Positions 2,125 to 34,774 of a stretch of 41,775 nucleotides of DNA are shown one piece after another. The notes below the pieces were generated by a model. It saw only the letters and a list, made by a program, of their open reading frames with translations. It ran no database searches and had not been told where the DNA came from. Location of the stretch: sequence record MH363708. The stretch is one strand, 5' to 3'. Both the position numbers and the translations under genes were made by a program. Source of the DNA: Escherichia phage C130_2. How positions within the stretch are numbered: the stretch's first letter is position 1; each line of letters starts with the position of its first letter.

Positions 2125-3666
2125 TCATTGTTCAGCGAGCGGAGGCATTGAGGCTTGTTTAGCCGTTAGCGTCGTGCCGCCGTTCAACTCGTCAAAGGCT
2201 CGGATATATTGCTTCTCGATCAGGGTGCGGATTGACCGCAGGATGTTTGACCGGTGCGCCCTCAACTTCTCTTCGCAGATCTTCGACAACTCGCTTTGCA
2301 ACGCCTTCCCGCCGCAGTAGTGGATCAGGATATCCAAAACCTTTTGTTCGGCGTTCGTCGGCTTCTGCTTGCCCTCGGCCCGCTCTTTCTTCTTCTCGCC
2401 CTCCAGGTGCGCTTTTAGCTCTTCTGCCAACTGCTCTTCGGTCACGATCTCGCACTGGTTGAAGTAGCCGCCACAATAGGCCGGATCGATAGGCCGCAGA
2501 CCGGCGAGCGGATTCTCTGGGGGGATTGCGTCGGCAAACTCTCGTTCGTACTTCTCACGCTGGGCGCGTTCAAATTCACCCTCGAAGATCGGCATACTGC
2601 GGCGAGTCAGTCGCAGGAGTTGGGCGATCCCCCCACCACGACGCTTGCCCGCAGCCATGATCACTTTTTCGCTGTCGGTCTTGTCCAGGGTCAGCGAAAA
2701 GGTTTTCCACACTGCGCCCTTTGCAGCACCGCCGCCGCGTGATTCAAGCACCAGTGACGCGGATCGCTCGGCTTCCTTCGATACGTGCGGCACAAAGATC
2801 CCGCAAGCACCCAGCGCCGTTGAAAAGCGCTGCCCGCAAAACGTCACATACTGCTGATCGTCGTTGCTGTTTTCGTCAAGGGCTTTGCCGTTGCGCTGGG
2901 CACTGGATAGGTGAAAACTCTTTGAGTCATAAACAACCATGCAGATCCGGCGATCACCTGCAAACTCTCTGATCTCGCTAATCTGACGTGATGCCGTTTC
3001 ACCCCATTTGGGGCGCGGCAGTTTGATGATCTGACCATCGCGCATGACTTCTTTTTGAATGTCCGTAAGGGCTGCGGGCTTATCGTAGATCAGGACGTGA
3101 TCCAGGATGTTAACGCCCCATTCAAGCTGCCATGCGGAAAGGCAGTTGATCACGGTTTCCGCGTCTTCGGTAAAGAATACGCTGATCCCCTTCTTTACGC
3201 GGAAGGCATCAAGAAACGGCCTTCCGGTTGCCACGCACGCTGCCAGCATCGAAAGCAAAGTTGTTTTGCCCACACCTGGCCCCGCGTTAATCTCGTTGAT
3301 CGTCTTCATGTTGAAGAGGTATTCAACAAAGGGCGTTGGCATTTCCGGCTTCGGGTTTTGGATGTACCCACGGATCACCGCTGGCGCTTCCGGTTTTTCC
3401 GGTGCCGGTTGCGGCTGATCCTGCTGCTGATCGTCCTCAACTTCGACGATCCGATCCAGGTGATCTGACAATTCACGATCAGACGGTGGCGGCGCATCAT
3501 GCCCCACGTATTCTGGCGGCAATTCAGGCATGTTGGCATCGTCCAGCACGCCCCAATTGTCCTGCGCTTGCTCGTCCTCTTCCACGTAATGCGGCGGCAC
3601 GTCTTCTGCGTCAATAGGCGCAAACGGGCGCAAATCTTTTTTAGGGTCGAACTTTTCACCAGCCAT
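2125..3666 (-). CDS. Replication protein with RecA-fold P-loop NTPase domain (helicase or initiator-like)
   Basis: 513 aa; acidic and proline-rich N-terminus, Walker A GPGVGKTT, Walker-B-like hydrophobic strand ending in D/E; AAGGAG RBS; adjacent origin-like region. Confidence 0.55.
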   Translation of the reverse strand: MAGEKFDPKKDLRPFAPIDAEDVPPHYVEEDEQAQDNWGVLDDANMPELPPEYVGHDAPPPSDRELSDHLDRIVEVEDDQQQDQPQPAPEKPEAPAVIRGYIQNPKPEMPTPFVEYLFNMKTINEINAGPGVGKTTLLSMLAACVATGRPFLDAFRVKKGISVFFTEDAETVINCLSAWQLEWGVNILDHVLIYDKPAALTDIQKEVMRDGQIIKLPRPKWGETASRQISEIREFAGDRRICMVVYDSKSFHLSSAQRNGKALDENSNDDQQYVTFCGQRFSTALGACGIFVPHVSKEAERSASLVLESRGGGAAKGAVWKTFSLTLDKTDSEKVIMAAGKRRGGGIAQLLRLTRRSMPIFEGEFERAQREKYEREFADAIPPENPLAGLRPIDPAYCGGYFNQCEIVTEEQLAEELKAHLEGEKKKERAEGKQKPTNAEQKVLDILIHYCGGKALQSELSKICEEKLRAHRSNILRSIRTLIEKQYIRAFDELNGGTTLTAKQASMPPLAEQ

Positions 3667-5974: not shown

Positions 5975-6673
5975 ATGCGTATCACAAAGGCAATGCAGGA
6001 AACAATTTTCGAAAACATTATTGCAGACAATCACCCGCTGCGCGTCCGTGCCGATAAGGTGCGCTGGAACGTCGCGCGCATGGTGGCAGATCTGGTGCTG
6101 GAAGCCCGCGCAAAAAATGGGTTTAAATCCGACGCGGAGATCGGCGCGTTAATTGAAGAGGTGAAGGATCTTAATAAGCGCGGCAAAGATTTTTTGAATG
6201 TCTCAAACTCGTTTAATAAATTCCGTCTGGAAGGTGAGGGGGAAGAAAAATATTATTACGATTATAACCTTTATTTCACGGTTGGCGGGCAGAAGCGCGA
6301 AGCCTCTTTCCTCGGTGAGTTGGACAAGGATCACCGTCTGCGCGCCGGTATCATAACCCCAGGCGTTGGGCATGAGGTGGCGCGGCCTTACCTGGGCATG
6401 TTCACACCAACCGGACGGATCAACGTTCCTGCGGATCATTGGGTCATGGCGCGCTTGCAGGAGTTGGAAAGCGAAGTTGCAGCCATTAACGGTGAGCACA
6501 TAACGTTAAAAAGCACCGTCTTTGCAACCCTGAATAAATTCACTACGGTTAAAAAGCTGGTGGCACACTGGCCCGAAGTGGAAAAATACATTCCGAAGGA
6601 TCAGCCGGTAACGGGCACCGGCATTGCGATCAGCGTCGCGGATCTTAATGCGATGTGCGGCATTCCAAAGTAA
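5975..6673 (+). CDS. Hypothetical protein (232 aa)
   Basis: ATG at 5975 with AGGAG RBS; followed by an intrinsic terminator. Confidence 0.6.
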   Translation: MRITKAMQETIFENIIADNHPLRVRADKVRWNVARMVADLVLEARAKNGFKSDAEIGALIEEVKDLNKRGKDFLNVSNSFNKFRLEGEGEEKYYYDYNLYFTVGGQKREASFLGELDKDHRLRAGIITPGVGHEVARPYLGMFTPTGRINVPADHWVMARLQELESEVAAINGEHITLKSTVFATLNKFTTVKKLVAHWPEVEKYIPKDQPVTGTGIAISVADLNAMCGIPK

Positions 6674-8078: not shown

Positions 8079-8092
8079 TGGCCCCTTTTTTT
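8069..8092. terminator. Bidirectional intrinsic terminator between the lysis cassette and the convergent Ig-like gene
   Basis: GGGGCCATGATGGCCCC followed by T7 on the plus strand and a U-rich stretch on the minus strand. Confidence 0.6.
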
Positions 8093-8888
8093 ATGCTGCT
8101 GGGTTAACTGTGACCGTGCAAACGTTGCTGGTAACGGTTTTCGGCGCGTTGTTGTTCGCGCTGGTAACGGTGCAACGGAAGCGCTTGCCGCTGTCGGATT
8201 CCTGCGGGGTGGCAAATGTCAGCGTTGGGCCGGTAGCGCCAGTGATGCCGGACGCGCCCCCGTTCGTTACGTTCGTCCAGGTGGCGCCGTCCGTGGACTG
8301 CTGCCACTGGTACGTGTAAGGCAACAAGCCGTCAGCCGCCACAACCGCCAGGCTTGCTGAGGTGCCAGCCGTCCAGGTTGCAGTCGCTGCAAGGTTCGTG
8401 GTCAGGCGGATCGCAACTTTGGTGCGCTCGCGCAGTGATTCCACGGTTTGCCCTGCGGAGTCGGTAACACGGCAGAAGTAATCACCGTTGTTGCTCGCTG
8501 CATAAGACGGGATGTTATAGGTATTCTGATCCGATCCGATTGGGTTATCAGTCGAAGAAGCGCGGCGAAACCATGCGTAATGATACGGCGGGATCCCGCC
8601 TTCCATTTCCACGGTGAAAGTTTTGTTTGCGCCCAGCGCCAGATAAGTTGCCGTGGCGTCACTGCCGTTATTGCCTGGCAGGTTGGTTGCGAAGGTGAGC
8701 GGGGGCACCTGGTTTGGATCCAGTTCGATATAAAACATACCAGTTGGATCCAGCGTGAGTGCTGCCTCTTGCTCTGCGGTCAGGTAGATAACGGAAAGTT
8801 GCGGAGTCTGCCCGCCGTCCGGCCCCGCAATGCGGGTGACTTTCCAGCCCTTAAGGGCGCGATCAGGGTGTCGGTGCCAAAAGCCCAT
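8091..8888 (-). CDS. Ig-like (I-set type) tandem-domain protein, possible virion decoration or adhesin
   Basis: 265 aa; two repeats with the Ig signature (PYHYAWF...GDYFCRV and PYTYQWQQSTDG..W...DSGKRFRCTV); AGAGG RBS. Confidence 0.55.
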   Translation of the reverse strand: MGFWHRHPDRALKGWKVTRIAGPDGGQTPQLSVIYLTAEQEAALTLDPTGMFYIELDPNQVPPLTFATNLPGNNGSDATATYLALGANKTFTVEMEGGIPPYHYAWFRRASSTDNPIGSDQNTYNIPSYAASNNGDYFCRVTDSAGQTVESLRERTKVAIRLTTNLAATATWTAGTSASLAVVAADGLLPYTYQWQQSTDGATWTNVTNGGASGITGATGPTLTFATPQESDSGKRFRCTVTSANNNAPKTVTSNVCTVTVNPAA

Positions 8889-10734: not shown

Positions 10735-11529
10735 TTAATATGGCACGTTGGCATTTGAGAGGAAAACGGCTTCGGCAAAGCCTCGCGGCGTCACACTCCT
10801 GATCGCCTTTGTCCTGGCATTCCGGCCCCCTGCGGCGTACCAGCCAGGATTGCAGCGCTTCCCGTTGATCAGCTGTATGGGCACCGGATTTTTTGGAGGC
10901 ATCACGAATGCTTCATTGCACCAAATGCCGGTTTTCTTCGGGTACGCATCGCGCGGCGGGTAGATCGTCGGGTAGATCGGGTGAGCGTCCACCTCTGGCA
11001 GATAGCCGCCATACTCGAACGGGTCGAAGGTGTGATCCGGCCTTCTCCACTGCGTGTTAAGCGTGTTAACTGCCGGATTCTCAAGCATCCACGGGATCTG
11101 CTTGCCGTCGCCGTTCTGCATGTCGCAGTAACCAGCAACCCACATCACCAGCTTTGCCAGCCTGATCGCGTCCTGCTGATCCTGTCGGCGGTTCGGGTAG
11201 TTTGGATGCGGGCGGCGCTCGCTGGTTGGCAAGTGCTTATCATCTGGATGATAGAACCACTTCGCGCCGGTGGTGGTTAGGTACGTGCATTCAGCGAAGC
11301 TGGCGACGAACTCAACGCCAGGGCCAACCATGCTGGCGATCTCCTGCGCTTGATTCACGATATCATGAGCCTTGAACCACATCCCCACGCGAACGATCAG
11401 AGGATTGACCGGATCGCGGTGAATGCCGTCAGGGTGTTTGCCGTCGAATAACCAACATTCATAACCTGCCCCCAACCAGGGGGCGGGCATAATGTCCGAT
11501 TCGTTAAAAAGGAAAATGGCTTTGCGCAT
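10735..11529 (-). CDS. Hypothetical enzyme-like protein (264 aa), function unknown
   Basis: Long ORF coupled to the upstream gene; His/Asp/Cys-rich; contains ENP and a C-terminal PRGFAEAV segment only faintly like C5-methyltransferase motifs. No confident assignment. Confidence 0.5.
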   Translation of the reverse strand: MRKAIFLFNESDIMPAPWLGAGYECWLFDGKHPDGIHRDPVNPLIVRVGMWFKAHDIVNQAQEIASMVGPGVEFVASFAECTYLTTTGAKWFYHPDDKHLPTSERRPHPNYPNRRQDQQDAIRLAKLVMWVAGYCDMQNGDGKQIPWMLENPAVNTLNTQWRRPDHTFDPFEYGGYLPEVDAHPIYPTIYPPRDAYPKKTGIWCNEAFVMPPKNPVPIQLINGKRCNPGWYAAGGRNARTKAIRSVTPRGFAEAVFLSNANVPY

Positions 11530-11968: not shown

Positions 11969-12553
11969 TTAAAGGCGCGCTGGCATTACGGCATATTCAG
12001 CAACGCCGTTGTGCGATTTGATTTCGACAAATGCGGCGGTTGTCGCATCCTGTAAAGTAATTTTTACGATACTTGATTTCATCTGCAATGCCTTGCAAAT
12101 GCGCGTGATTACTGCGAAGTATTCGACGTTGAAGCCGATAACCTTTACACCTTCGCGCTTGCTGTCAACTTCCGTAAACACTCGGCGCAAATCAGGATAA
12201 CGCCCATCAACAAGATCCACGGTGCCCACTGCCACGCGCGCTGCCTTCAAATCAACGTCTTTGAGATCTTCCGGCTTATCGTATGCCAGCGGGAGCCAGT
12301 ACACGATCCCCGCGTCAACGTCGATTGCCGCAGTCTCAATGCCGCGCATGTTCGGCACCTTCGACACTTTCAACAATAAGCCGGTTTCCGGCGCGTTGAT
12401 CAGGTCATGCGTCAGACGAAAGGCGCGGTGCCCGTCCGTTGCCTGGATCTGGTTGCCGATGAAATGCAGGGCGTTAAGGTAATAACGCACATCGTTTTGC
12501 GCCTGGCATAAATGAGCCGCTTTAATGTGCTGCGCTTTTGCAAAAATAATCAT
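11969..12553 (-). CDS. DnaN-like protein: truncated beta sliding clamp homolog (domains II-III only)
   Basis: 194 aa. Blocks NDVRYYLNALHF..ATDGHRAFRL, DLVDGRYPDLRRVF, IGFNVEYF and C-terminal AEYAVMPARL match, as recalled, the E. coli beta-clamp segments QDVRYYLNGMLF..ATDGHRLAV, KLVDGRFPDYRRVLP, IGFNVSYV and AAYVVMPMRL. Has its own AGAGG RBS and ATG, with no domain I upstream. Confidence 0.7.
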   Translation of the reverse strand: MIIFAKAQHIKAAHLCQAQNDVRYYLNALHFIGNQIQATDGHRAFRLTHDLINAPETGLLLKVSKVPNMRGIETAAIDVDAGIVYWLPLAYDKPEDLKDVDLKAARVAVGTVDLVDGRYPDLRRVFTEVDSKREGVKVIGFNVEYFAVITRICKALQMKSSIVKITLQDATTAAFVEIKSHNGVAEYAVMPARL

Positions 12554-12600: not shown

Positions 12601-13329
12601 TTATAAGACGCTTGCGGAAGCGTCCAGCATATCTTGCTTAGTAAGATAATCCGTCTTCACTGGCCCGCGTTTGCGTGGCTTAATCAGGAATAGTGAACTT
12701 GCCTTACTGTTTTTCCGGCCTTCCACTTCGGTTGCCGCATTCACGAATGCTACGCGCCCGTTATGGAATTTTTCTTCGCCTTTGGCGTCGGTGCCGTAAT
12801 AGCCCATGATGTTTACAATCTCGCTGCACGCCTGGATCATGTCATAGAACCATTGCGGCGAGTGGTCATGATTCAGAAGCATAACCGTTGTCACGCCATG
12901 CTGTTTTGCATTTCGTGCTGCTGCTGCAACCCAGGGGATCGGGTCTGCATACGGTGGATTACACCAGACGGTTTCCCCCTCCTTGCCCCATGCCACCTGC
13001 GGATCCAGCGCGTTTTGCTGCTCGTCGATAAACTCAACGCAAAGGGCGTTTCCGGCCTCTGCCGCAACGTCACGCGCGAACGGCCCCCAGCGGTGATCGG
13101 CATAGTTAAACAACCATTTTGGGGTGCGCCATTTCTGCCGGATAGCGTCAGGGGTTTTGCTCTTCGCAAAGCGTCGGCCCGTAATGACCTGATCCACTTC
13201 CTCCGGGGTTGCCGCCAGCGCGCCAGCGCCAGCCGCTTTCAATGCCTCTTCCAGCACCGCTTGCGGGATCGCAAAGTCTGCTGCCACCTGCGCAAGATCA
13301 ACGGTCTTGCTGTCGTTTTCGTCTTTCAT
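12601..13329 (-). CDS. DNA N6-adenine methyltransferase (phage Dam-like)
   Basis: Catalytic motif WCNPPY; ATG at 13329 overlapping the dUTPase stop (TGATG). Confidence 0.8.
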   Translation of the reverse strand: MKDENDSKTVDLAQVAADFAIPQAVLEEALKAAGAGALAATPEEVDQVITGRRFAKSKTPDAIRQKWRTPKWLFNYADHRWGPFARDVAAEAGNALCVEFIDEQQNALDPQVAWGKEGETVWCNPPYADPIPWVAAAARNAKQHGVTTVMLLNHDHSPQWFYDMIQACSEIVNIMGYYGTDAKGEEKFHNGRVAFVNAATEVEGRKNSKASSLFLIKPRKRGPVKTDYLTKQDMLDASASVL

Positions 13330-13781
13330 CACTTCGCCTTTTTATCAGTTGAGCCAAAGCCGTTGGCACCGCGTGCCGTGTCTTTGATCGTTTCCACTTC
13401 CGCGATCTGCCACTGCGGCGCGTCAACGATCATGCCCTGGGCAATAGCCGTGGTTGGGTCAATGGCTGGATATTCGCCGGTAGGGCGATCAGAAACGATT
13501 TTTACTTTCACCTCTCCGGTATAGTCGCTATCGATCACCCCCACGCAATTTGACAAGCGCGCATCCTGCTTGAATCCGTGCCCGCTGCGGCTGTAAATCA
13601 TCAGGGCTTTGCCCTTCGGAATGTCGAATACCAGCCCCGTTGAGAAGATCAGGGCGTTGATTTTTTCGTCGTAACTGCTTTCGATCCCGTAAATGTCGAA
13701 ACATGCTGATCCCTCGGTTGCATATTCTGGCAGACGCGCCAGGGGGTTTAACTTCTTAACGCCTAACACATTTGATCCCAT
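13329..13781 (-). CDS. dut: dUTP diphosphatase (dUTPase)
   Basis: Motifs SRSG, GVIDSDYTGE and C-terminal RGANGFGST characteristic of trimeric dUTPases; GAGG RBS. Confidence 0.85.
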   Translation of the reverse strand: MGSNVLGVKKLNPLARLPEYATEGSACFDIYGIESSYDEKINALIFSTGLVFDIPKGKALMIYSRSGHGFKQDARLSNCVGVIDSDYTGEVKVKIVSDRPTGEYPAIDPTTAIAQGMIVDAPQWQIAEVETIKDTARGANGFGSTDKKAK

Positions 13782-13811
13782 TGTTGGTGCCTCGTTGGTG
13801 AGTGGTGAAAC

Positions 13812-13857
13812 ATACTATATATAAAGACTTTGCAAACGCTTTAGCAATTCGTGCTAT
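13812..13857 (-). promoter_or_regulatory. Promoter-like bipartite element (site D)
   Basis: Minus strand ATAGCACGAATTGCTAAAGC, 18 bp, TATATATAGTATG, upstream of dUTPase. Confidence 0.5.
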
Positions 13858-13939
13858 TCTCTAACTGTCTTTGTTTCCTTCTGCTTTTTTTAGCCAGCCA
13901 GCTAACGCCGCGCCTTCTCCCTTTGGTTGCGGCTTTTTT

Positions 13940-14782
13940 TCAGCTTAACCACGCATTCATTGCCCCTGTGATATCCAGACCGGCGCGCACCCTGCCGCAA
14001 TCCTGGTATAAATAGATCTCGTCCTGATCCAGCGCCACCAATCGCACTTCACGATCACCCCTGTAGCGTGCTGAAACCTCGCGGCAGTTCAGCGGGGTAA
14101 AGCCGATCCATATCTCGCAACCCTTCGCGGGGCCGTCATGCTCTGCCATTGCCACGGCACAAAGGGGATCGCTGATCAGGTAGATTGGCCCGTCTTGCAG
14201 CCCCTTTGCTGGGTGGATCACTGCCACTGCGCCCCAGGTGCGAAGACCTGCCGCAAAGTGTACTGATCGATCAGGGTCTACCCGCGCCAGATTGCAGAAT
14301 TGAAGCGACGCGCCCGACTCGGCAACCTTCCTGCATGGCAGATAGGCTGATCCCTTTCTCCCCCCAGCACGCGCCATGCTCACAACTTTATCGTGCGGGA
14401 TCTCCGCGCTGTTCCTGGTGGTCTTGCTCTTCGATATGGCTTTAGCCTCTCTGGCGACGCTCTCGCGCCGTTCTGGCGTCATGCCCCCCAGCCAATCACC
14501 CAAATCATTGATCGCCTCGTTAAACGGCTGCATACGCGCTTTCATGAACCAATAAAGCCCATCATGCGAGCCGCCGCAGTCGCCGGAACAATACGCGAAA
14601 CCTTCCTCGCGCTTTTGCGGTTTTTTGTGGCCCCAGCGGAAGCGATCAACGCCGCCGCAGATGGGGCAAGATTGGTGGTTGCCGTCAAAGTTTTTGTGCT
14701 GCCAGCCGCACAACTCGATCAACGCCTTTTCCCACTTATCCCGCATTCCTCGCAAAACTGTTTGCTTGTCATGGATTGCCAT
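13940..14782 (-). CDS. Putative DNA primase (zinc-ribbon plus TOPRIM-like)
   Basis: 280 aa; CPICGG...YCSGDCG zinc-binding motif and an acidic LVALDQDE segment; divergent from the helicase gene. Confidence 0.45.
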   Translation of the reverse strand: MAIHDKQTVLRGMRDKWEKALIELCGWQHKNFDGNHQSCPICGGVDRFRWGHKKPQKREEGFAYCSGDCGGSHDGLYWFMKARMQPFNEAINDLGDWLGGMTPERRESVAREAKAISKSKTTRNSAEIPHDKVVSMARAGGRKGSAYLPCRKVAESGASLQFCNLARVDPDRSVHFAAGLRTWGAVAVIHPAKGLQDGPIYLISDPLCAVAMAEHDGPAKGCEIWIGFTPLNCREVSARYRGDREVRLVALDQDEIYLYQDCGRVRAGLDITGAMNAWLS

Positions 14783-14804
14783 TTTTGCCGGTGTCCGTTA
14801 TATT
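14776..14804 (+). promoter_or_regulatory. Sigma70-like promoter for the helicase / recombination operon
   Basis: TTGCCA, 17 bp, TATATT, about 40 nt upstream of ATG 14846 (RBS GGAG). Confidence 0.4.
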
Positions 14805-14845
14805 CATGAATCAGTCAGGTAGAAGAATAACGGAGCAAAAGACAA

Positions 14846-16903
14846 ATGGCAACCGCTGACACGTTAGAAAGCACCTTCGCAGAAAGGTTGATGGAAACGA
14901 TAGAAGACCGGATCGCCCGCACGCCGATTGAAGATCTGATCCGGCAGTTTGGCGATCTGCCGCTGGATCCTTACCCCTATCAGTGGGCCGCTTATGACGC
15001 GGTGGCGCAGTGCATCCGAAAATACCCAGGGCCGGTGATCGTTGAAGCGGCAGTGAGCGCGGGCAAAACGATCATGATCTCCATGCTGGCGCGCCGCATC
15101 ATGCAGTTGCCGTGGGATGATGAAAACCCAGCGAAAAAGCACCGCGCTTGTGTGCTGTCTCGCCAGGCTGAGATCATCGATCAGGATGCGCAGGAATTGT
15201 GGAATTTTCACGTAAACAACTCCATTTTCTGCGCTGGCCTGGGCAACAAAAAATCAACCCATTATCCCATCGTGTGCGGCAGTGAAGGCACGATGGTTAA
15301 CAGTCTGTTTGACAAGCTGGCAGACTTCGCCCCGCTCTTCCTGATCATTGACGAATGCCACCACGTCAACATTGACGATCTGATCGAATCCGAAGAAAGG
15401 ATGGTGCCCGACTACCTCAAAGACGAAAACGGCGCACTTGTTCTGGAAGACGGCGAGCCTGTCCAGATTGGCGAGCACAAAGGCGAGAATTACGAGGAAA
15501 TGATCGCCGCAAAGCGCAACGCTTACACGATCATAATCAGGACTTTGCAGGAGCGGTGCCTTAAGGTTCACGGGTGCCGGTTGCGCGTGATCGGTTACAC
15601 CGGCACCCCTTACCGTGGGGTTGATTCCATCGTCAATGAGGATTACGAAACGCCAGGATTTTGGCGCAAGACGGTGATCCGCATCACGACAAATTACCTG
15701 GTAAAAGTCGGTTCAGTTGTGCCCACTTACTTTGGCGTGTCGTCGCTGGGTTATCAGTTGGATCAGTTCGCCAGCTTCACTGAGTTTGGGGCGAAGGATT
15801 TTAGCAACAACGAAATGATCGCCATGCAGCGGCAGATCCTGAAAGATAAAAAGCTGACCTGGAAGATCATGCAAGAAGTGGTGGAACTCACCAAAGAGCG
15901 CAACGGGGTTTTAGTCACCTGCGCTGGTGTGGCCCACTGCAAAGAGGCCGCAGCGGCCCTGCCGGACGGCATAAGCTATGCGATCATCACGGAAGACACC
16001 GGCCCGAAAAAGCGAATGGAGATCATCGAAGACGCGAAGGCCGGAAAGATAAAATTCATCTTCCAGGTTAACGCCCTTACAACGGGCGTGAATGTGCCCC
16101 TGTGGGATACTTCCGTTATCCTGCGCCGTATTGGGTCACTCACCCTGTTGGTGCAACTGCTGGGCCGTGGGATGCGTATTTTAAAGGATTGGATGATTGA
16201 AGCCGGATTCAAGAAGAGCGATCACCTCGTCCTGGACTATTCGGGCACTATGGCTGCAATGGGCGGGCTGTATGAGGATCCGATCCTTGAAGATTACGTG
16301 TACACCGTGGACAAGGTGAAAGAGGATTGGAAGGAATGCAAATACGGGCACAAAAACGGCAAGCACGCGCGCCGCTGCCGCCACATTCACCCCAACGGCG
16401 AGCGCTGCGATGATTTCTTTGTTTATAAGCTCTGCGAAGACGTCAAAGACCGCAGCACGGGCCGCATCTTGCAGAAGGGCTGCGGGGCCAAAAATGACAC
16501 CGTGGCGCGCCAGTGCCGCTGCTGTGGCAACCTCCTGATCGATCCAAACAAAAACCTATCCGGCGAGCATTACACGGATAAAGATTATTGCGACGTGATC
16601 AGCTTTACGCCGCAGGTTGGCAACGGTGGATCCTTCGCTATTGAGTATCAACTCATGAAGGATGGGATCCAGTTTAAGGCGTGGGAAATTCACTGGCCCA
16701 ACTCCAAAAACCCTGGGGCGAAACAGCTATGGAACCAGTTTTTAAAAGAGCATGTTTTCATGCCGGAGCACCGCGCCACGTTGAAGGCGTGCAAATCTGC
16801 CGAAGCCGTGTTGGCTAACGTATCGTTGATCCTCCCCCCAAAGCGGGTGACGCATCGTAAAATGGGAAGCGGCAAAGATAACGTTTACAAAAAGGTATTT
16901 TGA
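14846..16903 (+). CDS. SF2 DEAD/DEAH-box family helicase with C-terminal zinc-ribbon
   Basis: Walker A AAVSAGKT, Walker B / DEAH-like LIIDECHH, C-terminal Cys clusters (CRHIHPNGERC, CRCCG). Confidence 0.8.
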   Translation: MATADTLESTFAERLMETIEDRIARTPIEDLIRQFGDLPLDPYPYQWAAYDAVAQCIRKYPGPVIVEAAVSAGKTIMISMLARRIMQLPWDDENPAKKHRACVLSRQAEIIDQDAQELWNFHVNNSIFCAGLGNKKSTHYPIVCGSEGTMVNSLFDKLADFAPLFLIIDECHHVNIDDLIESEERMVPDYLKDENGALVLEDGEPVQIGEHKGENYEEMIAAKRNAYTIIIRTLQERCLKVHGCRLRVIGYTGTPYRGVDSIVNEDYETPGFWRKTVIRITTNYLVKVGSVVPTYFGVSSLGYQLDQFASFTEFGAKDFSNNEMIAMQRQILKDKKLTWKIMQEVVELTKERNGVLVTCAGVAHCKEAAAALPDGISYAIITEDTGPKKRMEIIEDAKAGKIKFIFQVNALTTGVNVPLWDTSVILRRIGSLTLLVQLLGRGMRILKDWMIEAGFKKSDHLVLDYSGTMAAMGGLYEDPILEDYVYTVDKVKEDWKECKYGHKNGKHARRCRHIHPNGERCDDFFVYKLCEDVKDRSTGRILQKGCGAKNDTVARQCRCCGNLLIDPNKNLSGEHYTDKDYCDVISFTPQVGNGGSFAIEYQLMKDGIQFKAWEIHWPNSKNPGAKQLWNQFLKEHVFMPEHRATLKACKSAEAVLANVSLILPPKRVTHRKMGSGKDNVYKKVF

Positions 16904-17370
16904 TGAACCGGAAAGAAACAGCGCATTGGATCGAATACTGGACGGAATGGGATGAATCACAATTCCTGCCGTCCGAAGATGCAGACGCGGAAACGTGCTT
17001 CCATTGGGTTACTGAGTTTTTCCCTGATCTGCTGATCTTCCACCCCGTCAACGAGTCTGGCGGGGGCCGGAATCCGCAGTATGAGCAAAAGTTAAACGCA
17101 ATGGGCCGCGTCAAAGGGATCATGGATTATATCTTGCTGGAGCCGTTCGGCCCTTACCCCCACGCGGTGATCGAACTCAAGCGCCGGAACAAGAAGAAAA
17201 GCCGATTGAAGCCGGAGCAAAAAGAGCAACTGGAGCGCGCCCGCAGGAAAGGTGCATTTTGTGCTGTTTGTTGGGGGCCGGATGCTTTCAAGGCTTGCAT
17301 TCATGAATTAATGATGCTTAAATCTGCTCATGTTCACGAAACAATGAAGGGCAAAGACAATGCAGACTGA
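16903..17370 (+). CDS. VRR-NUC domain nuclease
   Basis: TGATG overlap with the helicase stop; PD-(D/E)XK-type motif (IMDYILLEP...AVIELKR) as in VRR-NUC proteins. Confidence 0.55.
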   Translation: MNRKETAHWIEYWTEWDESQFLPSEDADAETCFHWVTEFFPDLLIFHPVNESGGGRNPQYEQKLNAMGRVKGIMDYILLEPFGPYPHAVIELKRRNKKKSRLKPEQKEQLERARRKGAFCAVCWGPDAFKACIHELMMLKSAHVHETMKGKDNAD

Positions 17371-18367
17371 AACCGCACAACCTTACTTGCAGGTGTTTGA
17401 ATCGCACGAATTGAGCAACGAGGAATATCACGCGGAAACCGATCATATTTCGGGATCCTCGCTGCATGAACTTCTGATCCGCAGCCCTGCTGGCTGGCGC
17501 TTCAAAAAGGATAAAGAGGCGAAGGAAAAGGCGAAGGAAAGCACCGGCGCGAAGCAAAAGCCGCTGACGTTCGGCACAACGGGCCATACCTGTATGCTTG
17601 AGCCTGATCGCTTCGATCTGGAATATTACCGGATGCCGGATCCCGACGATTACCCCGACGCGCTCACGTCCGTTGCTGCGGTTACAAAGTGGCTTAAGGA
17701 TAAAGGGATCGCAGGTTACTCTGGGAAGAAAATGCCGGAACTTTACCCGCTGGTTGATATGACCGGCGAAGACGTGATGATCTGGCAACGCCTGTGGGAA
17801 CATCACCAGGGGATCGCCGGTGATCGTGAGCAAGTACCGGCAAAGGATTTTGACCGCGTGTTAATGATGCGTGACGTGCTTTTGCAGAATCAGGACTTTC
17901 ACCGCATTATCACCGAAGGCACGCCGGAACTTTCCATTTTCGCTGAGATCGACGGCGTAAAAGTAAAAGTGCGTCTTGACCGCATCACCGCTGACCGTGA
18001 GATCATCGACTATAAAACCACGCAAAGCGCGGAGCCGGAAAAATTCGGGCGGCTGGCTTTTGACAATGGTTATTATTTGAAAATGGCGTTGCAGCATGAC
18101 GTATTTTCTATCGCATACGGCGCACCAAAAGCCGTGACATTATTAGCGCAGGAGAAAGAAGAGCCATTCCTTGCGGAAGCATTCGAATTGACCGAAGAGC
18201 AATTATTATTGGGCCGCATGATGTACCGCACCGCATTACAGATTTATAAGGCGTGCCGTGATGCTAATAAGTGGCCTTCTTATTCTCGCGGTCAACGTAG
18301 AATTAAACTTCCGACGCCTGGCTATATTCAAGCGCGTTACCCTGAATACTTTAAAGCGGAGAAATAA
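17360..18367 (+). CDS. Putative PD-(D/E)XK exonuclease (recombination exonuclease partner of ERF)
   Basis: 335 aa; GAAGG RBS; motif RLDRITADREIIDYKTTQ; immediately upstream of the ERF gene. Confidence 0.5.
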   Translation: MQTETAQPYLQVFESHELSNEEYHAETDHISGSSLHELLIRSPAGWRFKKDKEAKEKAKESTGAKQKPLTFGTTGHTCMLEPDRFDLEYYRMPDPDDYPDALTSVAAVTKWLKDKGIAGYSGKKMPELYPLVDMTGEDVMIWQRLWEHHQGIAGDREQVPAKDFDRVLMMRDVLLQNQDFHRIITEGTPELSIFAEIDGVKVKVRLDRITADREIIDYKTTQSAEPEKFGRLAFDNGYYLKMALQHDVFSIAYGAPKAVTLLAQEKEEPFLAEAFELTEEQLLLGRMMYRTALQIYKACRDANKWPSYSRGQRRIKLPTPGYIQARYPEYFKAEK

Positions 18368-18369
18368 AG

Positions 18370-19092
18370 ATGGAAAACATCATTCAATTTTCGGAATCAC
18401 ATCAAACATTCATGCGGGCATTTTTTGAAGCCCGTAAGAATATCGGCAAGATTACGAAAAAACGTGAGAATGACCATTTAAAATCTAAATATGCCAACCT
18501 CGCTGACTATTTCGACGCCATTGATTCTGCCATTGAAGATCAAGGCTTAATGGTTATTCAGTCGGCGGGCCGCTTCACCGAAAAAGGCGATTTGCCGATG
18601 GAAACGCGGATCGAGCACGTCGAAAGCGGGGAATTTATGGTTGCCGTGATGGAAATTCACGTTGATAAGAAGACCGCGCAGGGCGACGGATCCGCGCAGT
18701 CTTACGCGAAGCGTTACCACATCGGATCGCTGTTCGGTATCGCTACCAGTGATGATGATGGGCACGGCGCGAAGCGCAAGGCGAAGGATTACATTAAAGA
18801 GTTTGACCTGATCACTGATATTAAAGAATTGAAAGACGAGGCCCGCGCCGCTTATCGCTTGCTGACGGGTCAGGAGACGGAGCAAAACCTTATCACAACT
18901 TACGTGACCAAACGCGAAGCCGAAGCCGCCGTGGCAAATCCTGGGTTTATTCCGGCGAAACCGCCAAAACGTGAAGTGCCACGCAAGCAAAGCGATCTGG
19001 CCCAGCCGCCAGCCGGTGTGGCTGACAACTTGCAAAGCGGCGCACAACCTGCGGATAATGCGGGCGACATTAAACCAACGGAGAGTTTTTAA
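18370..19092 (+). CDS. erf: ERF-family single-strand annealing protein
   Basis: N-terminal KSKYANLADYFDAI...GL pattern typical of ERF recombinases; located next to ssb. Confidence 0.6.
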   Translation: MENIIQFSESHQTFMRAFFEARKNIGKITKKRENDHLKSKYANLADYFDAIDSAIEDQGLMVIQSAGRFTEKGDLPMETRIEHVESGEFMVAVMEIHVDKKTAQGDGSAQSYAKRYHIGSLFGIATSDDDGHGAKRKAKDYIKEFDLITDIKELKDEARAAYRLLTGQETEQNLITTYVTKREAEAAVANPGFIPAKPPKREVPRKQSDLAQPPAGVADNLQSGAQPADNAGDIKPTESF

Positions 19093-19095
19093 CAT

Positions 19096-19623
19096 ATGGC
19101 AACGCGCGGAGTTAACAAAGTAATTATCGTCGGCAACCTGGGGCAAGATCCCGAAGTGCGATATATGCCCAGCGGCGGTGCCGTAGCAAACATCACGGTT
19201 GCCACCTCGGAAAGCTGGAACGATAAGGGCACCGGCGAGAAGAAAGAGCAAACGGAATGGCACCGGATCGTTTTGTTCGGCAAGTTGGCTGAGATCGCCG
19301 GTGAATACCTCAAAAAAGGATCGCAGGTCTACATTGAGGGCAAGTTACAAACTCGCAAGTGGACTGACAAAGACGGCGTGGAGCGCTACACAACGGAAGT
19401 TGTTGTGAGCATGGGCGGCACAATGCAAATGCTCGGCGGGAAGAATGCGCCAGCCAGCCAGACTGCGTGGGGGGATCCTCAACAACCTGGCGGCAATGGG
19501 GCAAATCCTCAACGTGGGGGCCGTGGGGCGTCTAACGGCAATCAGCGCGGCAACCGTCCGGCTAATCAGTCGCAAGGCGCTAACGAGCCTCCTGTTGACT
19601 TTGATGATGATATACCGTTTTAA
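19096..19623 (+). CDS. ssb: Single-stranded DNA-binding protein
   Basis: Near-identity over the OB fold to E. coli SSB as recalled ([28 protein letters not shown]...[12 protein letters not shown]...[13 protein letters not shown]), Gly/Gln-rich linker, acidic tip DFDDDIPF. Confidence 0.95.
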
Positions 19624-19629
19624 CTGGTC

Positions 19630-19650
19630 GGCCCCTTCGGGGGCCATTTT
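19630..19650 (+). terminator. UUCG-tetraloop hairpin with short U-run (partial terminator)
   Basis: GGCCCC-TTCG-GGGGCC followed by ATTTT. Confidence 0.45.
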
Positions 19651-19663
19651 GTAGGGCTGGCCC

Positions 19664-20098
19664 ATGAAAATTTGCACAACCTGCAAGGAATCAAAGCCGC
19701 TGACGGAATACCACGCCAACCGGCGAAGCAAAGACGGCAAATCATGCACCTGTAAGGGCTGCAAACGCGATAAAGATCGCAGCCGGTACGAATCCAACGC
19801 CGATGCAGTAAAAGCCCGTGTGCGGGCTTATCAGGCCGCAGAAGGCAAGGCCGTTGCGAATGGCTGCAAAGCTGAGTACAAAAAGCGCCACCCGAAGAAG
19901 GCGCGGGCACATCAACTGGTTAGAAATGCTCTTCGGCGCGGTGAATTAACGCGCCAGCCGTGCGAAGCGTGCGGCACGTCCAACCATGTGATCGCCCATC
20001 ATGACGATTACGATCAGCCGCTGGCGGTGCGCTGGCTGTGCGAAGATCATCACAAAGAATGGCACCGCATCAACGGAGAGGCAAAAAACCCATGTTAA
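19664..20098 (+). CDS. HNH endonuclease
   Basis: CxxC...CEACG...HHDDYDQPL...WLCEDHH arrangement typical of HNH nucleases. Confidence 0.6.
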   Translation: MKICTTCKESKPLTEYHANRRSKDGKSCTCKGCKRDKDRSRYESNADAVKARVRAYQAAEGKAVANGCKAEYKKRHPKKARAHQLVRNALRRGELTRQPCEACGTSNHVIAHHDDYDQPLAVRWLCEDHHKEWHRINGEAKNPC

Positions 20099-20478
20099 AC
20101 ACTCTGAAAGATAAAAACGTTTATTTGGCTGGCCCAATGACGGGGATCCCTGATTACAACCGCCCCGCGTTTATGGTGGCGCATTTCGCGCTGCGCCCGC
20201 ATGTGCTCGGCCTGTTGAATCCATCATTCCTGCCGGTAACGCTGCGTGATCATGCCGCCTATATGGCGATCTCCCTGCCGATGGTTGACGCGGCAGACGC
20301 GGTGGTATTCCTCCCAGGCTGGAAGGCTTCGAAAGGTTGCGCGCTGGAATTGGCCCGCGCCAATGAGCGTGGGATCCCGTGCTTCGAATACCTCAACCCC
20401 AGCAAAAAAGGCCGCTTGCCAAAACTGGTGCCTGTGGGCGATGATAGCGGGGTGAATACACGGGGGAATGAATCATGA
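20092..20478 (+). CDS. Nucleoside 2-deoxyribosyltransferase-like (DUF4406-like) protein
   Basis: ATG at 20092 overlapping the HNH stop; VYLAGPMTG...VVFLPGW...ELARA pattern of a Rossmann-like fold. Confidence 0.45.
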   Translation: MLNTLKDKNVYLAGPMTGIPDYNRPAFMVAHFALRPHVLGLLNPSFLPVTLRDHAAYMAISLPMVDAADAVVFLPGWKASKGCALELARANERGIPCFEYLNPSKKGRLPKLVPVGDDSGVNTRGNES

Positions 20479-20690
20479 AAATTGCAATCCTGATCGCTGA
20501 CGTGCGAAAGGCGAAAGGAAAGAGCCAGCGGCAGATCTCGGAAGCAACGGGGATCGCTGAGCGCCAGTTAAGCCGCTATGAAAACCAGCACGAAACGCCG
20601 TCTTTGGCAACGCTGGTTAAGGTGGCAGGGGCGCTGGGCGTCAACTTCTCTGATCTGGTTGAAGTGTCGGACATGGTTGATCCGGCTTAA
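20475..20690 (+). CDS. XRE-family helix-turn-helix transcriptional regulator
   Basis: 71 aa; QRQISEATGIAERQLSRYE HTH signature; overlapping start. Confidence 0.65.
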   Translation: MKIAILIADVRKAKGKSQRQISEATGIAERQLSRYENQHETPSLATLVKVAGALGVNFSDLVEVSDMVDPA

Positions 20691-20704
20691 TCCGGGGTGA
20701 AAAA

Positions 20705-20733
20705 ATAAGGGGCCATTGCGGCCCCTTTTTTTA
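20705..20733. terminator. Bidirectional intrinsic terminator between the plus-strand block and the tailspike gene
   Basis: A-run, GGGGCCATTGCGGCCCC, T7. Confidence 0.65.
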
Positions 20734-22983
20734 TGTTGGCGTGCGGAACGACACAACTTTTGCCGCTGCAAGCTGGGTGCCAGCCGGTGTGGCGGTCTGG
20801 ATAGCGTGAGCAATATCGATCCTGATCTCACTGGTTGGATCGTTCACGTTGACACGATAAGGCCCGCGCGTGATCCACGTAGAAAGAGGATTGCCCCCTT
20901 CACCGGCACCAGGGATCACAATTCGGCACCCTGGCGAAAGTGGCGTTTTGTAGATCCAGACCATATCACCATTATTGCCACCTAGCGGAAAGTTTGAAGC
21001 AATCGAGAAGGATCCCACGGTGGTTGCCTTGATTTTAAATTCATCAATGGCGGGAATGTACGCGCCGGAGGCGGTCACAACGAAGATCTTTCCGTCATTT
21101 CGAACAACGAGATCCCCCTCCATGAACTCACGCCCCGTGGGGAATGCGTTACCATCCCAAATGCCCGTGGCGTTCATATCAGCCGGTGACGGAATGATAT
21201 AAGTGTGATTCGATGCGGTCATTTTTGCACCGATCCCGCCGTCAATCCCCTGGCGCGGATATGGGCGCGCAAAGACGTTGGATCCTACGCTTTCGATATG
21301 CGAATAGGCGCAGCGTGACCAACCTTGATCGCCGTAGCCGTTCACGTCAGTTGCGTTAACGTTGACCATTCGCAAGATGGTGCGCCCCGTGGCAAGGTAG
21401 CCGTTTGAAGCTGTGCCGCCCGATGAATCATCACCCACGCAATCAAAGATCCGGCAATGAACATTGCTCATGTTCAATTCAGTTGCCACACCGAAAAGCG
21501 AGAATTTCGCCACGTTCACATTTTCAATGTAATACGTGTTAGTTGCCCCTGCCTTCTCGGTGCCGATACCGGCATAAAAGCGCCCTGTTTTACTGTATAC
21601 GTTGCGGATCGCCATATCGTGACAAGGGCCGCGCGCGCCAACGCCAGCATTTGTGCCCCATTCAAGCATAATAACGCGCACATCCTGGGCAAGCGTGCTG
21701 CCGGTAACTACCGGTTCACCGTAAACCCCATCAATGGAGCAACGGCGGGAGCCGTAGAAAAGCACCGTCGCAACCGTCAGGCCGGAACCGTTCGAAACGT
21801 TCTGGTTGGGGTCGCCGTGGATGTTTTCAACAACGGAATCACGAACCATTTCGAAGTGTACGATCTGACGCACTTTGTTTGCGTAAACGTTACGGATCGT
21901 AATGTTTTTGGCAAAGTTTGCGTCAGGTGTATCAATGCCATAAGGGCTTTGACCTGCAACCCCAATCCCAATACCCCAGTTTGACGGCGTGATCGGGGCT
22001 TGGCCTGTTGAGTCGATGTTATCAAGGAAAATGCCGTCAATCAGGCAACCATTATCATAATGGCGCTGTACTACGTTTAACTCGATCCCGTCGCCGCCCA
22101 TATCGTAAAACGACAAATTGCGGTAGACGCCGGACACAACCGTTGATCCCGTGCCTTGCTGGAGGATGCCGTAAAGGCCATTCCGAAACTCGGAATCGCT
22201 GACCTCAATAGTGCTTCCGTCCACTGGCACACCCTGCATCATGATTGATGCAACCTTGCTGGTTGTCGGCTTACCGTCAAACATGCAATCGCGGATCCTT
22301 ACGTCGCCGCCGTAGTGCATGATTCGCAGGTTGTTAATCACTGCACCTTCGATCAGGGTGTCAGTCAGGCGAAAATCTGCGGTGCCCTTCCAGGTTCCCC
22401 CCATGATGGTGATCCCATTCGGGTTGACCGTGCTTTCAAGCGTGCCAGACCAACCATAAGCGTTGACGATCTTCCCGTTCGCTTTGGCGTAGTCAAACAT
22501 TGCCTGAATCGCCTGTGAAACGCTGGTGTACTCTTCGCGGCCCACAAAATCAAACGGCGTCACAAAGCCTTGCAGTTTGGTTTTTAGCGTGCCTTCTGGC
22601 GTGCCCACGTATTCCCAGCCGGTAGACGATCCGATCACCTTCCACATCTGCGCCGCGTCATATTCCAGAAGGTTATCAAAGGAATATTGCAGCACGTCAT
22701 TGCGATCATAAACGTCCATGCTTGATGCGGTCTGCGTCACAAAGCGCCCAACAATCCCGTTATATTCGGGATAGCCGCTCTGGTTGATTTTGATCGGCTG
22801 CGGCACCGGCACCAGCGTTAGATCCTCATTTTCCAGGTACACTTGCACCTGATTTGCCGGATCCTTCGGGTTGGTGTCGGGCTTGCCAATATAGATATCA
22901 CCGCCGCTGATAGGCGCAAACTTGCCAACCTGAATAAACGGGCTGGACGGCATACGCACGGCAGAAAAAACAATATCGCTCAT
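20731..22983 (-). CDS. Tailspike protein (P22-like N-terminal head-binding domain, beta-helix receptor-binding domain)
   Basis: ATG at 22983 with GAGG RBS; N-terminus GDIYIGKPDTNPKDPANQVQVYLENED...PIKINQSG..YNG matches the P22 tailspike head-binding domain as recalled; rest is Gly/Asn/Val-rich, consistent with a parallel beta-helix. Confidence 0.85.
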   Translation of the reverse strand: MSDIVFSAVRMPSSPFIQVGKFAPISGGDIYIGKPDTNPKDPANQVQVYLENEDLTLVPVPQPIKINQSGYPEYNGIVGRFVTQTASSMDVYDRNDVLQYSFDNLLEYDAAQMWKVIGSSTGWEYVGTPEGTLKTKLQGFVTPFDFVGREEYTSVSQAIQAMFDYAKANGKIVNAYGWSGTLESTVNPNGITIMGGTWKGTADFRLTDTLIEGAVINNLRIMHYGGDVRIRDCMFDGKPTTSKVASIMMQGVPVDGSTIEVSDSEFRNGLYGILQQGTGSTVVSGVYRNLSFYDMGGDGIELNVVQRHYDNGCLIDGIFLDNIDSTGQAPITPSNWGIGIGVAGQSPYGIDTPDANFAKNITIRNVYANKVRQIVHFEMVRDSVVENIHGDPNQNVSNGSGLTVATVLFYGSRRCSIDGVYGEPVVTGSTLAQDVRVIMLEWGTNAGVGARGPCHDMAIRNVYSKTGRFYAGIGTEKAGATNTYYIENVNVAKFSLFGVATELNMSNVHCRIFDCVGDDSSGGTASNGYLATGRTILRMVNVNATDVNGYGDQGWSRCAYSHIESVGSNVFARPYPRQGIDGGIGAKMTASNHTYIIPSPADMNATGIWDGNAFPTGREFMEGDLVVRNDGKIFVVTASGAYIPAIDEFKIKATTVGSFSIASNFPLGGNNGDMVWIYKTPLSPGCRIVIPGAGEGGNPLSTWITRGPYRVNVNDPTSEIRIDIAHAIQTATPAGTQLAAAKVVSFRTPT

Positions 22984-34256: not shown

Positions 34257-34730
34257 TTAGAATGGAATATCAGGATCAAAATCGGCCTTTGGTGCTGCCG
34301 GTACGATCTCCGCGTCCTGCACGTCTTCTGCGCGGCGCGGGTTAACTTCGCGGGCATTGTCTGCCGCTGCCACAAAATCACCCTCCAGCGGGCCTTTGTA
34401 GGTCAGCGCACGAATGCTGGCGATATCGGCAAGGAATTTGGTTTCCTGCACGGTAAAATCAGCGCGCAACTTCTGCAAGCCAGCCTCCATGATCGGCAGA
34501 CTGATCGCCGCTTGCTCTTCGGCGCTCGGCATATCGTAATCAATCGCGCACTCAAACGTTTTTAACAGCACATAGGCTGCGCTTTCGCCACCCTTGCGGA
34601 TATGCTCTTCAACGCTCCAGATCGCGGAGTAGTCGAAGGATTCAACCGATACGGATCCGCGTTTTGGCCCGCCGTTTTTGCCCTCGGCAACGCAAAGGCA
34701 CACGAACAAAGTTTTATTGATAACTGGCAT
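34257..34730 (-). CDS. Protein ending in an SSB-like acidic tip (…ADFDPDIPF), function unknown
   Basis: ATG at 34730 with AGGG RBS; last 8 residues DFDPDIPF match 7 of 8 the SSB tip DFDDDIPF encoded at 19096-19623; the first ~35 residues weakly resemble the first beta-hairpin of SSB. Confidence 0.5.
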   Translation of the reverse strand: MPVINKTLFVCLCVAEGKNGGPKRGSVSVESFDYSAIWSVEEHIRKGGESAAYVLLKTFECAIDYDMPSAEEQAAISLPIMEAGLQKLRADFTVQETKFLADIASIRALTYKGPLEGDFVAAADNAREVNPRRAEDVQDAEIVPAAPKADFDPDIPF

Positions 34731-34774
34731 ATTCTTAACCCTCATGAATTAGTGAAGTGTACGGGCAAAGAATA

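Follow-up and report, generated by a model that had tools for sequence, protein, structure and literature searches.

Four contiguous open reading frames (ORFs) on the plus strand fill positions 16903–19623 of Escherichia phage C130_2 (MH363708) and very likely represent the RecA-independent recombination module of this virulent-looking coliphage with a P22-type portal. C130_2, a cheese isolate, is a member of the genus Giessenvirus (PMC7552041); its whole sequence of 41,775 bp is referred to here as the window. The four ORFs encode a VRR-NUC nuclease, a RecE-type exonuclease, an ERF-family annealase and a single-stranded DNA (ssDNA)-binding protein (SSB), and a gene for a RadD-like helicase lies directly upstream. 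An earlier interpretation made from the letters alone (the sequence-only reading) had proposed the same four assignments, and all of them held, with profile, solved-structure or fold evidence for each protein. The limits it gave for the block were likewise exact, from the ATG at 16903 to the end of the ssb stop codon at 19623. In profile searches with the individual proteins, ERF, SSB and the exonuclease scored above Pfam cut-offs and the VRR-NUC protein scored below; it was recovered through its family profile and its fold.

The module includes an adjoining pair of exonuclease and annealase genes. The exonuclease matched Pfam DUF3799 (78.4 bits, 9e-22; cut-off 26) and PDDEXK_1 (23.2 bits; cut-off 22), as well as PHROG phrog_412, named 'exonuclease VIII' (4.5e-86). 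Its match to RecE in the PDB (3H4R, 1.7e-5) spanned the catalytic core, with 'LDRI...IIDYKTT' of the phage protein aligned to 'PDKI...IMDVKTT' of RecE. A PD-DXK active site characterizes the RecE family, and annealases are dependent on SSB (PMC11611040); the active-site residues of the phage protein (H76, D207 and D217-Y-K219) were invariant in orthologues from four genera. Compared to the NCBIfam equivalog model for RecE (NF007259), the protein scored 48 bits against a cut-off of 1269, and the match was confined to profile positions 612–861, the C-terminal nuclease. Based on these alignments, it is a homologue of the RecE nuclease domain and not a RecE orthologue, RecE of E. coli being 866 amino acids (aa) long.

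The annealase matched the Pfam ERF family (PF04404: 80 bits, 2.4e-22; cut-off 25) over residues 16–138, a domain followed by a low-complexity C-terminal tail, and PHROG phrog_155 (6.6e-37). In the PDB it matched Gp77 (9Y6U, E = 6.4e-25) over residues 8–200. The Gp77 sequence is present as 48 chains across entries 9Y6U and 9Y9C, which is consistent with large oligomers of this homologue; a literature search on 'Gp77', the solved ERF homologue, returned nothing relevant. Phage P22 likewise has an ERF-family annealase in its erf region (erf, arf, abc1 and abc2), and both phages carry a P22-type portal and injection proteins. By analogy, ERF of C130_2 presumably plays a P22-like role, circularizing or recombining the injected genome. 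To our knowledge, the erf region of P22 contains no SSB, VRR-NUC or RadD-like gene. P22, unlike the C130_2 module, is also without a RecE-type exonuclease of its own and uses host RecBCD, which it converts by means of Abc2 (PMC5928155).

In its layout the pair resembles RecET of the Rac prophage and lambda Red, where the gene for a 5'–3' PD-(D/E)XK exonuclease adjoins that for an annealase, and the exonuclease has the H...D...DxK site in common with RecE. The differences are considerable: the annealase is ERF rather than RecT or Redbeta, the exonuclease consists of the nuclease domain and an N-terminal part of ~180 aa without the ~560-aa N-terminal region of RecE, and the C130_2 module additionally has its own SSB, a predicted resolvase and a RadD-like ATPase. 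A gene resembling Gam was not identified.

For the VRR-NUC protein, single-sequence searches fell short. It scored 20.2 bits against Pfam VRR_NUC (PF08774), under the gathering cut-off of 23.8, and phmmer gave a marginal match to PDB entry 4QBL. A word-indexed homologue search returned one near-identical match and no diversity, whereas an exhaustive HMMER search found 419 homologues (E <= 0.001), 97 of which made up a family alignment and profile. PF08774 was matched individually by 74 of these 97 members at E <= 0.001 (best, 8.3e-14), and the family profile identified the VRR-NUC structure 4QBL in the PDB (E = 1.8e-22), followed by 4QBN and Pseudomonas FAN1. The AlphaFold (AF2) model of the phage protein had a pLDDT of 93.7; its top eight Foldseek matches in the PDB were six chains of 4QBL, then 4QBN and 4QBO, and it superposed on 4QBL with a root-mean-square deviation of 1.4 Å over 122 columns (target-normalized TM-score 0.81; probability 1.0). 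The assignment was thus rescued by the family profile, by the PF08774 matches of related proteins and by the fold. Its catalytic D...ExK and glutamine were also well preserved, D75 and K93 being invariant and E91 and Q106 at least 90% conserved across the 97-sequence alignment. The motif GI(S/M)D...IELK was invariant in the VRR-NUC proteins of four phage genera and aligned with PDL...IEIK of 4QBL.

Stand-alone VRR-NUC proteins of prokaryotes and viruses form a class in which a homodimer cleaves Holliday junctions symmetrically. The solved examples, psNUC (4QBL) and the two phage proteins saNUC (4QBN) and stNUC (4QBO), are dimers that cleave four-way junctions (PMC4103454). With these three the C130_2 protein has its fold, its catalytic D...ExK and its size class in common, at a sequence identity of just ~23–24%, and its model has two additions to the aligned core, a beta-hairpin at the N terminus and a long helix at the C terminus (126–152). 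Because its nearest solved relative is a dimeric Holliday-junction resolvase, the VRR-NUC protein is best interpreted as the enzyme that resolves junctions in the module, with predicted junction-resolving or branch-cleaving activity, and not as part of the annealing step. It is left as the resolvase candidate because the sole other window protein with a resolvase label (11969–12553) models as a sliding clamp, as described below.

VRR-Nuc domains have also been found as antibacterial effectors of type VI secretion systems (PMC9635880), and PD-(D/E)XK nucleases are functionally diverse. An offensive or anti-defense role can therefore be imagined for both nucleases, in which the VRR-NUC protein would be a toxin-like, structure-specific enzyme, the exonuclease would degrade host DNA and neither would partner ERF. 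We give this very little credence: the stand-alone, 155-aa architecture and the fold fit the dimeric resolvase class of 4QBL and not effector fusions, a RecE-type exonuclease gene directly upstream of an annealase gene is the classic two-component arrangement, and the synteny of the module is conserved in phages Skarpretter, IME279 and Lumpael.

We next consider the helicase gene, after which the sequence-only reading had placed a complete single-strand annealing system. As far as the exonuclease, annealase and SSB are concerned, this stood; the VRR-NUC protein, as a relative of resolvases, is probably not an annealing component, and the helicase probably lies within the module rather than before it. 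The helicase matched Helicase_C and ResIII in Pfam and phrog_16 in PHROG. Its best NCBIfam match was RadD/YejH (NF053632: 1e-54, 186 bits; equivalog cut-off 720), and its only strong PDB match was RadD (6JDE, 3.3e-32). Both the phage protein and E. coli RadD (6JDE/7R7J) have superfamily 2 (SF2) motifs and a Cys-rich region, and the phage protein is ~100 aa longer, with inserts. RadD binds the C-terminal tip of SSB through Arg21, Arg49 and Arg145 (PMC10238739). In a pairwise alignment, Arg21 of this pocket corresponded to R58 of the phage protein and Arg49 to a lysine, and Arg145 fell outside the alignable region, a suggestive result but not a conclusive one. RadD is described as an SF2 ATPase accessory to recombination (PMC8887467). 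Because of its RadD-like character, the helicase gene is probably the first gene of the recombination module and not a marker of its boundary.

Several observations weigh against the recombination module as we have drawn it. The similarity to RadD is far under the equivalog cut-off (186 versus 720 bits), and RadD itself is reported to have no independent helicase activity (PMC8887467); the role of the phage protein is thus a guess, and it could instead be a replication helicase. SSB may serve mainly in replication, its adjacency to erf reflecting only co-regulation. The single-protein score of the VRR-NUC nuclease is below threshold (20.2 versus 23.8 bits), and the promoter and terminator calls reported below are consensus matches only.

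One alternative is a block that is mainly a replication module. In this case the helicase and SSB would work with the host polymerase in replicating phage DNA, the nucleases would act on replication intermediates or break down host DNA as a source of nucleotides, and annealing recombination would be secondary. The genes lie back-to-back with a primase-like gene, and dUTPase, methyltransferase and clamp-like genes are found just upstream. No DNA polymerase gene was found among the window ORFs that were scanned, and the host-type SSB tip could accordingly recruit the host replisome. Among 666 phage records with a bacterial-type SSB (E < 1e-30), moreover, many have no adjoining annealase. We nevertheless consider this reading unlikely: recombination is the dedicated function of ERF and of RecE-type exonucleases, the nearest characterized relative of the helicase is the recombination accessory RadD and not a replicative helicase, and the window contains a separate replicative-helicase candidate with AAA_25 and helicase-primase PHROG matches (2125–3666, minus strand). 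Recombination and replication are coupled in phages anyway, and the replication reading differs mostly in emphasis.

The favored reading of a recombination module leads to the following scheme; its parts were identified by sequence, profile or fold evidence, whereas its steps draw on what is known of the protein families. The RecE-type exonuclease would resect double-stranded DNA ends in the 5'–3' direction and leave 3' single-stranded tails, which SSB would coat. ERF rings would load on this ssDNA, probably aided by the SSB tip, as has been described for the annealases Redbeta and RecT (PMC11611040; also bioRxiv 10.1101/2020.04.14.041095), and anneal it to complementary ssDNA, for which terminal repeats, replication forks or sister genomes would be sources. 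The joints could then be remodeled or branch-migrated by the RadD-like ATPase, which has an E. coli homologue that binds the SSB tip, and the VRR-NUC dimer would cut four-way or branched intermediates, letting concatemers be packaged. The likely roles of such a module are genome circularization, recombination-dependent replication with concatemer formation, and repair. Because no DNA polymerase was found among the scanned ORFs and the SSB tip is of host type, a further role of SSB is probably to bring the Pol III and primosome machinery of the host to phage ssDNA.

SSB matched Pfam PF00436 with 137.7 bits (1.7e-40; cut-off 26) and the NCBIfam models NF006533 (283 bits; cut-off 260) and TIGR00621 (193.9 bits; cut-off 53.95). 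Its best PDB match was 7F2N (249 bits), followed by SSB of E. coli (1EQQ, 247 bits) and, at a lower score, of Pseudomonas aeruginosa (5YUN, 187 bits). The protein consists of an oligonucleotide/oligosaccharide-binding (OB) fold, a linker rich in Gly, Asn, Gln and Arg, and an acidic C-terminal tip, DFDDDIPF. Aligned to 1EQQ/1EYG, it keeps W40, W54, H55, F60 and W88 (in SESW, TEWHR, LFGK and RKWTD). In E. coli numbering, W40, W54, F60 and W88 are the residues that stack on ssDNA and H55 is a tetramer residue. The tail agrees with that of E. coli SSB at 11 of 12 residues, and the final eight are identical. Because these eight residues match the tip on which host partners dock, the proposal that the phage SSB interacts with host SSB partners stands as a reasonable inference.

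The sequence-only reading had gone further, describing the OB fold as nearly identical to that of the host and proposing an SSB phylogeny as a test for recent host acquisition. The description was overstated. Over residues 1–115 the phage SSB is 83.5% identical to E. coli SSB, with 19 differences, and it is equally far from all of the 17 cellular Enterobacterales SSBs tested (83.5–86% identity, compared to 70% for P. aeruginosa SSB), which are themselves 88.7–96.5% identical to E. coli SSB. Recent acquisition found no support. A neighbor-joining (NJ) tree (Kimura distances, rooted on P. aeruginosa) put the protein among Skarpretter-type phage SSBs, in a position sister to the cellular clade; bootstrap values were weak, with the phage SSB outside the cellular Enterobacterales clade in 51 of 100 replicates and inside Enterobacteriaceae in 22 of 100. 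For this reason, we base the case against capture on distances, nucleotide identity and synteny and do not rely on the tree.

That ssb is a recently captured E. coli gene, a moron-like acquisition instead of a long-standing phage gene, appears very improbable on this evidence. The Enterobacterales character of the OB fold, the identical tip and the minority of replicates within the Enterobacteriaceae speak for it. Opposed to these are the equal distance to all tested Enterobacterales SSBs, each of which is closer to E. coli SSB than the phage protein is, and the nucleotide identity, which is ~72% to E. coli ssb1 (OB fold only) and at most 77.5% to any replicon among 5,426 E. coli genomes, the best match being a plasmid ssb. 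Base composition (GC content 0.555, GC3 0.60) fits that of the phage genome (0.554), ssb follows erf at this position in four phage genera, and the tree places its product with Skarpretter-like phage SSBs. Judged from these comparisons, SSB is a protein of the Enterobacterales type that has been in the phage lineage for a long time, with no sign of recent host capture.

A precedent for the pairing of annealase and SSB is found in phage HK620, where the final six residues of the phage SSB are required to stimulate the neighboring annealase Sak4 (PMC5928155). In both HK620 and C130_2, the annealase gene adjoins a phage ssb whose product has an acidic C-terminal tip. The two systems differ in that Sak4 is a RecA-core ATPase and the C130_2 annealase is ERF, and in that the HK620 protein is only distantly homologous to SSB and carries the tip NDYPPF, whereas SSB of C130_2 is of the close Enterobacterales type and has the exact host tip. 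We also observed other SSBs (P0027 and P0028), encoded on contigs of ~41.5–41.9 kb, that had 91% OB-fold identity to E. coli SSB and were nested in the cellular Enterobacteriaceae clade, a placement unlike that of the C130_2/Skarpretter lineage. These contigs are of the size of phage genomes; if they represent related podophages, exchange or replacement of ssb on more than one occasion within the group is suggested.

Together, the RadD-like ATPase gene and the four genes that end with ssb form one tightly packed unit that is probably co-transcribed and translationally coupled (Table 1), as indicated by start/stop overlaps, ribosome-binding sites, an upstream promoter-like site and a hairpin after ssb. 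The VRR-NUC start codon has one base in common with the helicase stop codon (TGA, 16901–16903), and a TTG is found at 16900, one codon 5' of the ATG. The VRR-NUC and exonuclease genes overlap by 11 nt, and gaps of 2 and 3 nt separate the exonuclease gene from erf and erf from ssb, respectively. Starts of module genes are preceded by GGAG/AGG ribosome-binding sites. The promoter candidate was the best promoter-like site within 13800–21000, a scan in which such sites were no more common than in shuffled sequence, making it weak evidence. The hairpin 3' of ssb begins 7 nt after the stop codon and is a candidate closer of the helicase-to-ssb unit. Overall, the promoter and terminator scans were at or near chance, and only these two sites and the hairpin that ends the rightward gene block were sensibly positioned.

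Table 1. Genes and candidate transcription signals in and around the C130_2 recombination module (window coordinates)
Feature	Position	Strand	Evidence or remark
Primase-like gene	13940-14782	-	Divergent from the helicase gene across 63 bp
Sigma-70-like promoter candidate, TTGCCA-17-TATATT	14776..14804	+	10/12 consensus matches; primase/helicase divergent region
RadD-like SF2 helicase/ATPase, 685 aa	14846..16903	+	Profile and PDB matches; Cys-rich zinc-ribbon region
Stand-alone VRR-NUC nuclease, 155 aa	16903..17370	+	Profile, family-alignment and fold evidence
RecE-type PD-(D/E)XK exonuclease, DUF3799, 335 aa	17360..18367	+	Pfam, PHROG and PDB RecE match
ERF-family single-strand annealing protein, 240 aa	18370..19092	+	Pfam, PHROG and PDB match
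Bacterial-type, homotetramer-class SSB, 175 aa	19096..19623	+	Pfam, NCBIfam and PDB; stop codon ends at 19623
GC-rich hairpin GGCCCCTTCGGGGGCC then ATTTTGT	19630..19645	+	Candidate, possibly partial, intrinsic terminator
HNH/NinG-like endonuclease, 144 aa	19664..20098	+	phrog_2340, 6.5e-38; module membership uncertain
DUF4406 / nucleoside 2-deoxyribosyltransferase-like gene	20092-20478	+	Between the endonuclease gene and the helix-turn-helix (HTH) regulator gene
Bidirectional hairpin	20707-20727	both	Ends the rightward gene block, facing the convergent tailspike gene

Public annotation of C130_2 already contains most of these names. An exact-sequence look-up showed the module proteins to be identical to YP_009812576–YP_009812581 of the RefSeq record of C130_2 (NC_048067), which are named DNA helicase, hypothetical protein, exonuclease VIII, Erf-like ssDNA annealing protein, single strand DNA binding protein and endonuclease. 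The hypothetical protein is the product of the VRR-NUC gene, and its UniRef name is VRR-NUC domain-containing protein; the product of the gene following ssb is named endonuclease or HNH endonuclease. The same order (primase / helicase, VRR-NUC, exonuclease VIII, Erf, SSB / ... tailspike), with the same annotations, recurs as a syntenic module in Escherichia phage Skarpretter (Skarprettervirus, gp09–gp14), Klebsiella phage IME279 (Sortsnevirus, gp20–gp25) and Salmonella phage Lumpael (Murrayvirus, gp35–gp39). Identity to the C130_2 proteins was 42–46% for VRR-NUC, 54–72% for the exonuclease and ~69–75% for SSB. Two of these three relatives, Skarpretter and IME279, also have an endonuclease gene in the interval from ssb to the HTH regulator gene, where the annotation of Lumpael shows none. 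C130_2 has the DUF4406 gene downstream of the module, whereas Skarpretter has none at that position; the probable ATG of this gene (20092) overlaps the endonuclease stop codon. On this gene order, the module belongs to the conserved core of these podophages of ~41 kb. It is standard, already annotated in the published C130_2 genome and conserved across four genera, and it is not special to C130_2.

Close matches were also seen outside these named phages. The ERF sequence occurs in identical form on an IMG/VR contig, and an assembly of Enterobacter hormaechei contains identical or near-identical proteins on a contig of ~41.5 kb. Stutzerimonas phage vB_SstS_STP9 (OR754315.1, unannotated), for which the host is given as Stutzerimonas stutzeri, is the nearest record in the phage collection searched and is 93–97% identical to the E. 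coli/Shigella phage C130_2 at the nucleotide level. We rejected a Stutzerimonas or Pseudomonas host, given that it is Escherichia phage C130_2 to which the identical proteins belong, that all other relatives infect Enterobacterales and that SSB is 83–86% identical to Enterobacterales SSBs compared to 70% for P. aeruginosa. Judging by sequence, the host label of OR754315.1 looks questionable.

Two further proteins may bear on host DNA metabolism, and both had been pointed out in the sequence-only reading as an extra SSB-tip protein and a clamp fragment; both proved real. The first, a 162-aa protein encoded between the portal and scaffold genes (34257–34745, minus strand), ends in ...ADFDPDIPF and mimics the partner-docking tip of SSB. 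Its orthologues in four phages (IME279, KMB41, Kc166B and Skarpretter) end in (D/N)(I/V)PF, with the Pro-Phe invariant and an acidic run upstream. It had no match in Pfam, PHROG or NCBIfam and is a candidate SSB-tip decoy or adaptor. The second is a 194-aa protein (11969–12553, minus strand) labeled 'RusA-like Holliday junction resolvase' by phrog_3007 and by the annotations of relatives. In its AlphaFold model (pLDDT 75), all significant PDB matches were to the sliding clamps DnaN and PCNA (E ~1e-5, probability 1.0), and no RusA was among them. We therefore rejected it as a real resolvase; on its model, it is probably a short clamp-fold protein, and its RusA label a propagated misannotation.

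Taken together with the tip-bearing protein, the products of this five-gene unit may be pictured as a self-contained, RecA-independent machine built around the SSB tip, which would be the docking site for ERF, for the RadD-like ATPase and for host partners, with the 162-aa protein acting as a soluble decoy that strips host SSB partners such as ExoI, RecQ, PriA and RecO from ssDNA, or retargets them, during infection. This extended picture is speculative and we regard it as improbable. As far as we know, such hijacking of the SSB interactome is undescribed for this phage group.

Other genes of the window were observed in passing. A protein with nucleotide modification associated domain 5 (Nmad5) is encoded at 5975–6673 on the plus strand (3.4e-29), methyltransferases at 10735–11529 and 12601–13332, and dUTPase at 13329–13781; together, these matches are hints of DNA modification functions in C130_2. 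An immunoglobulin (Ig)-domain protein (8091–8888, minus strand) matched PHROGs for Hoc-like head decoration (4e-52) and is encoded away from the main structural block.

As a discovery, the module matters little, its genes being of well-known kinds and already annotated, and the clamp-fold 'RusA-like' protein and the SSB-tip-bearing protein are more unusual than the recombination module itself. Its compact exonuclease/ERF/SSB cassette from a coliphage is nonetheless a reasonable candidate for recombineering toolkits, where ERF systems with a cognate SSB are under-explored relative to Red and RecET. Its linkage to a RadD-like ATPase and a VRR-NUC nuclease in four podophage genera would make it a natural system in which to study how the SSB tip may coordinate annealing, branch processing and resolution.

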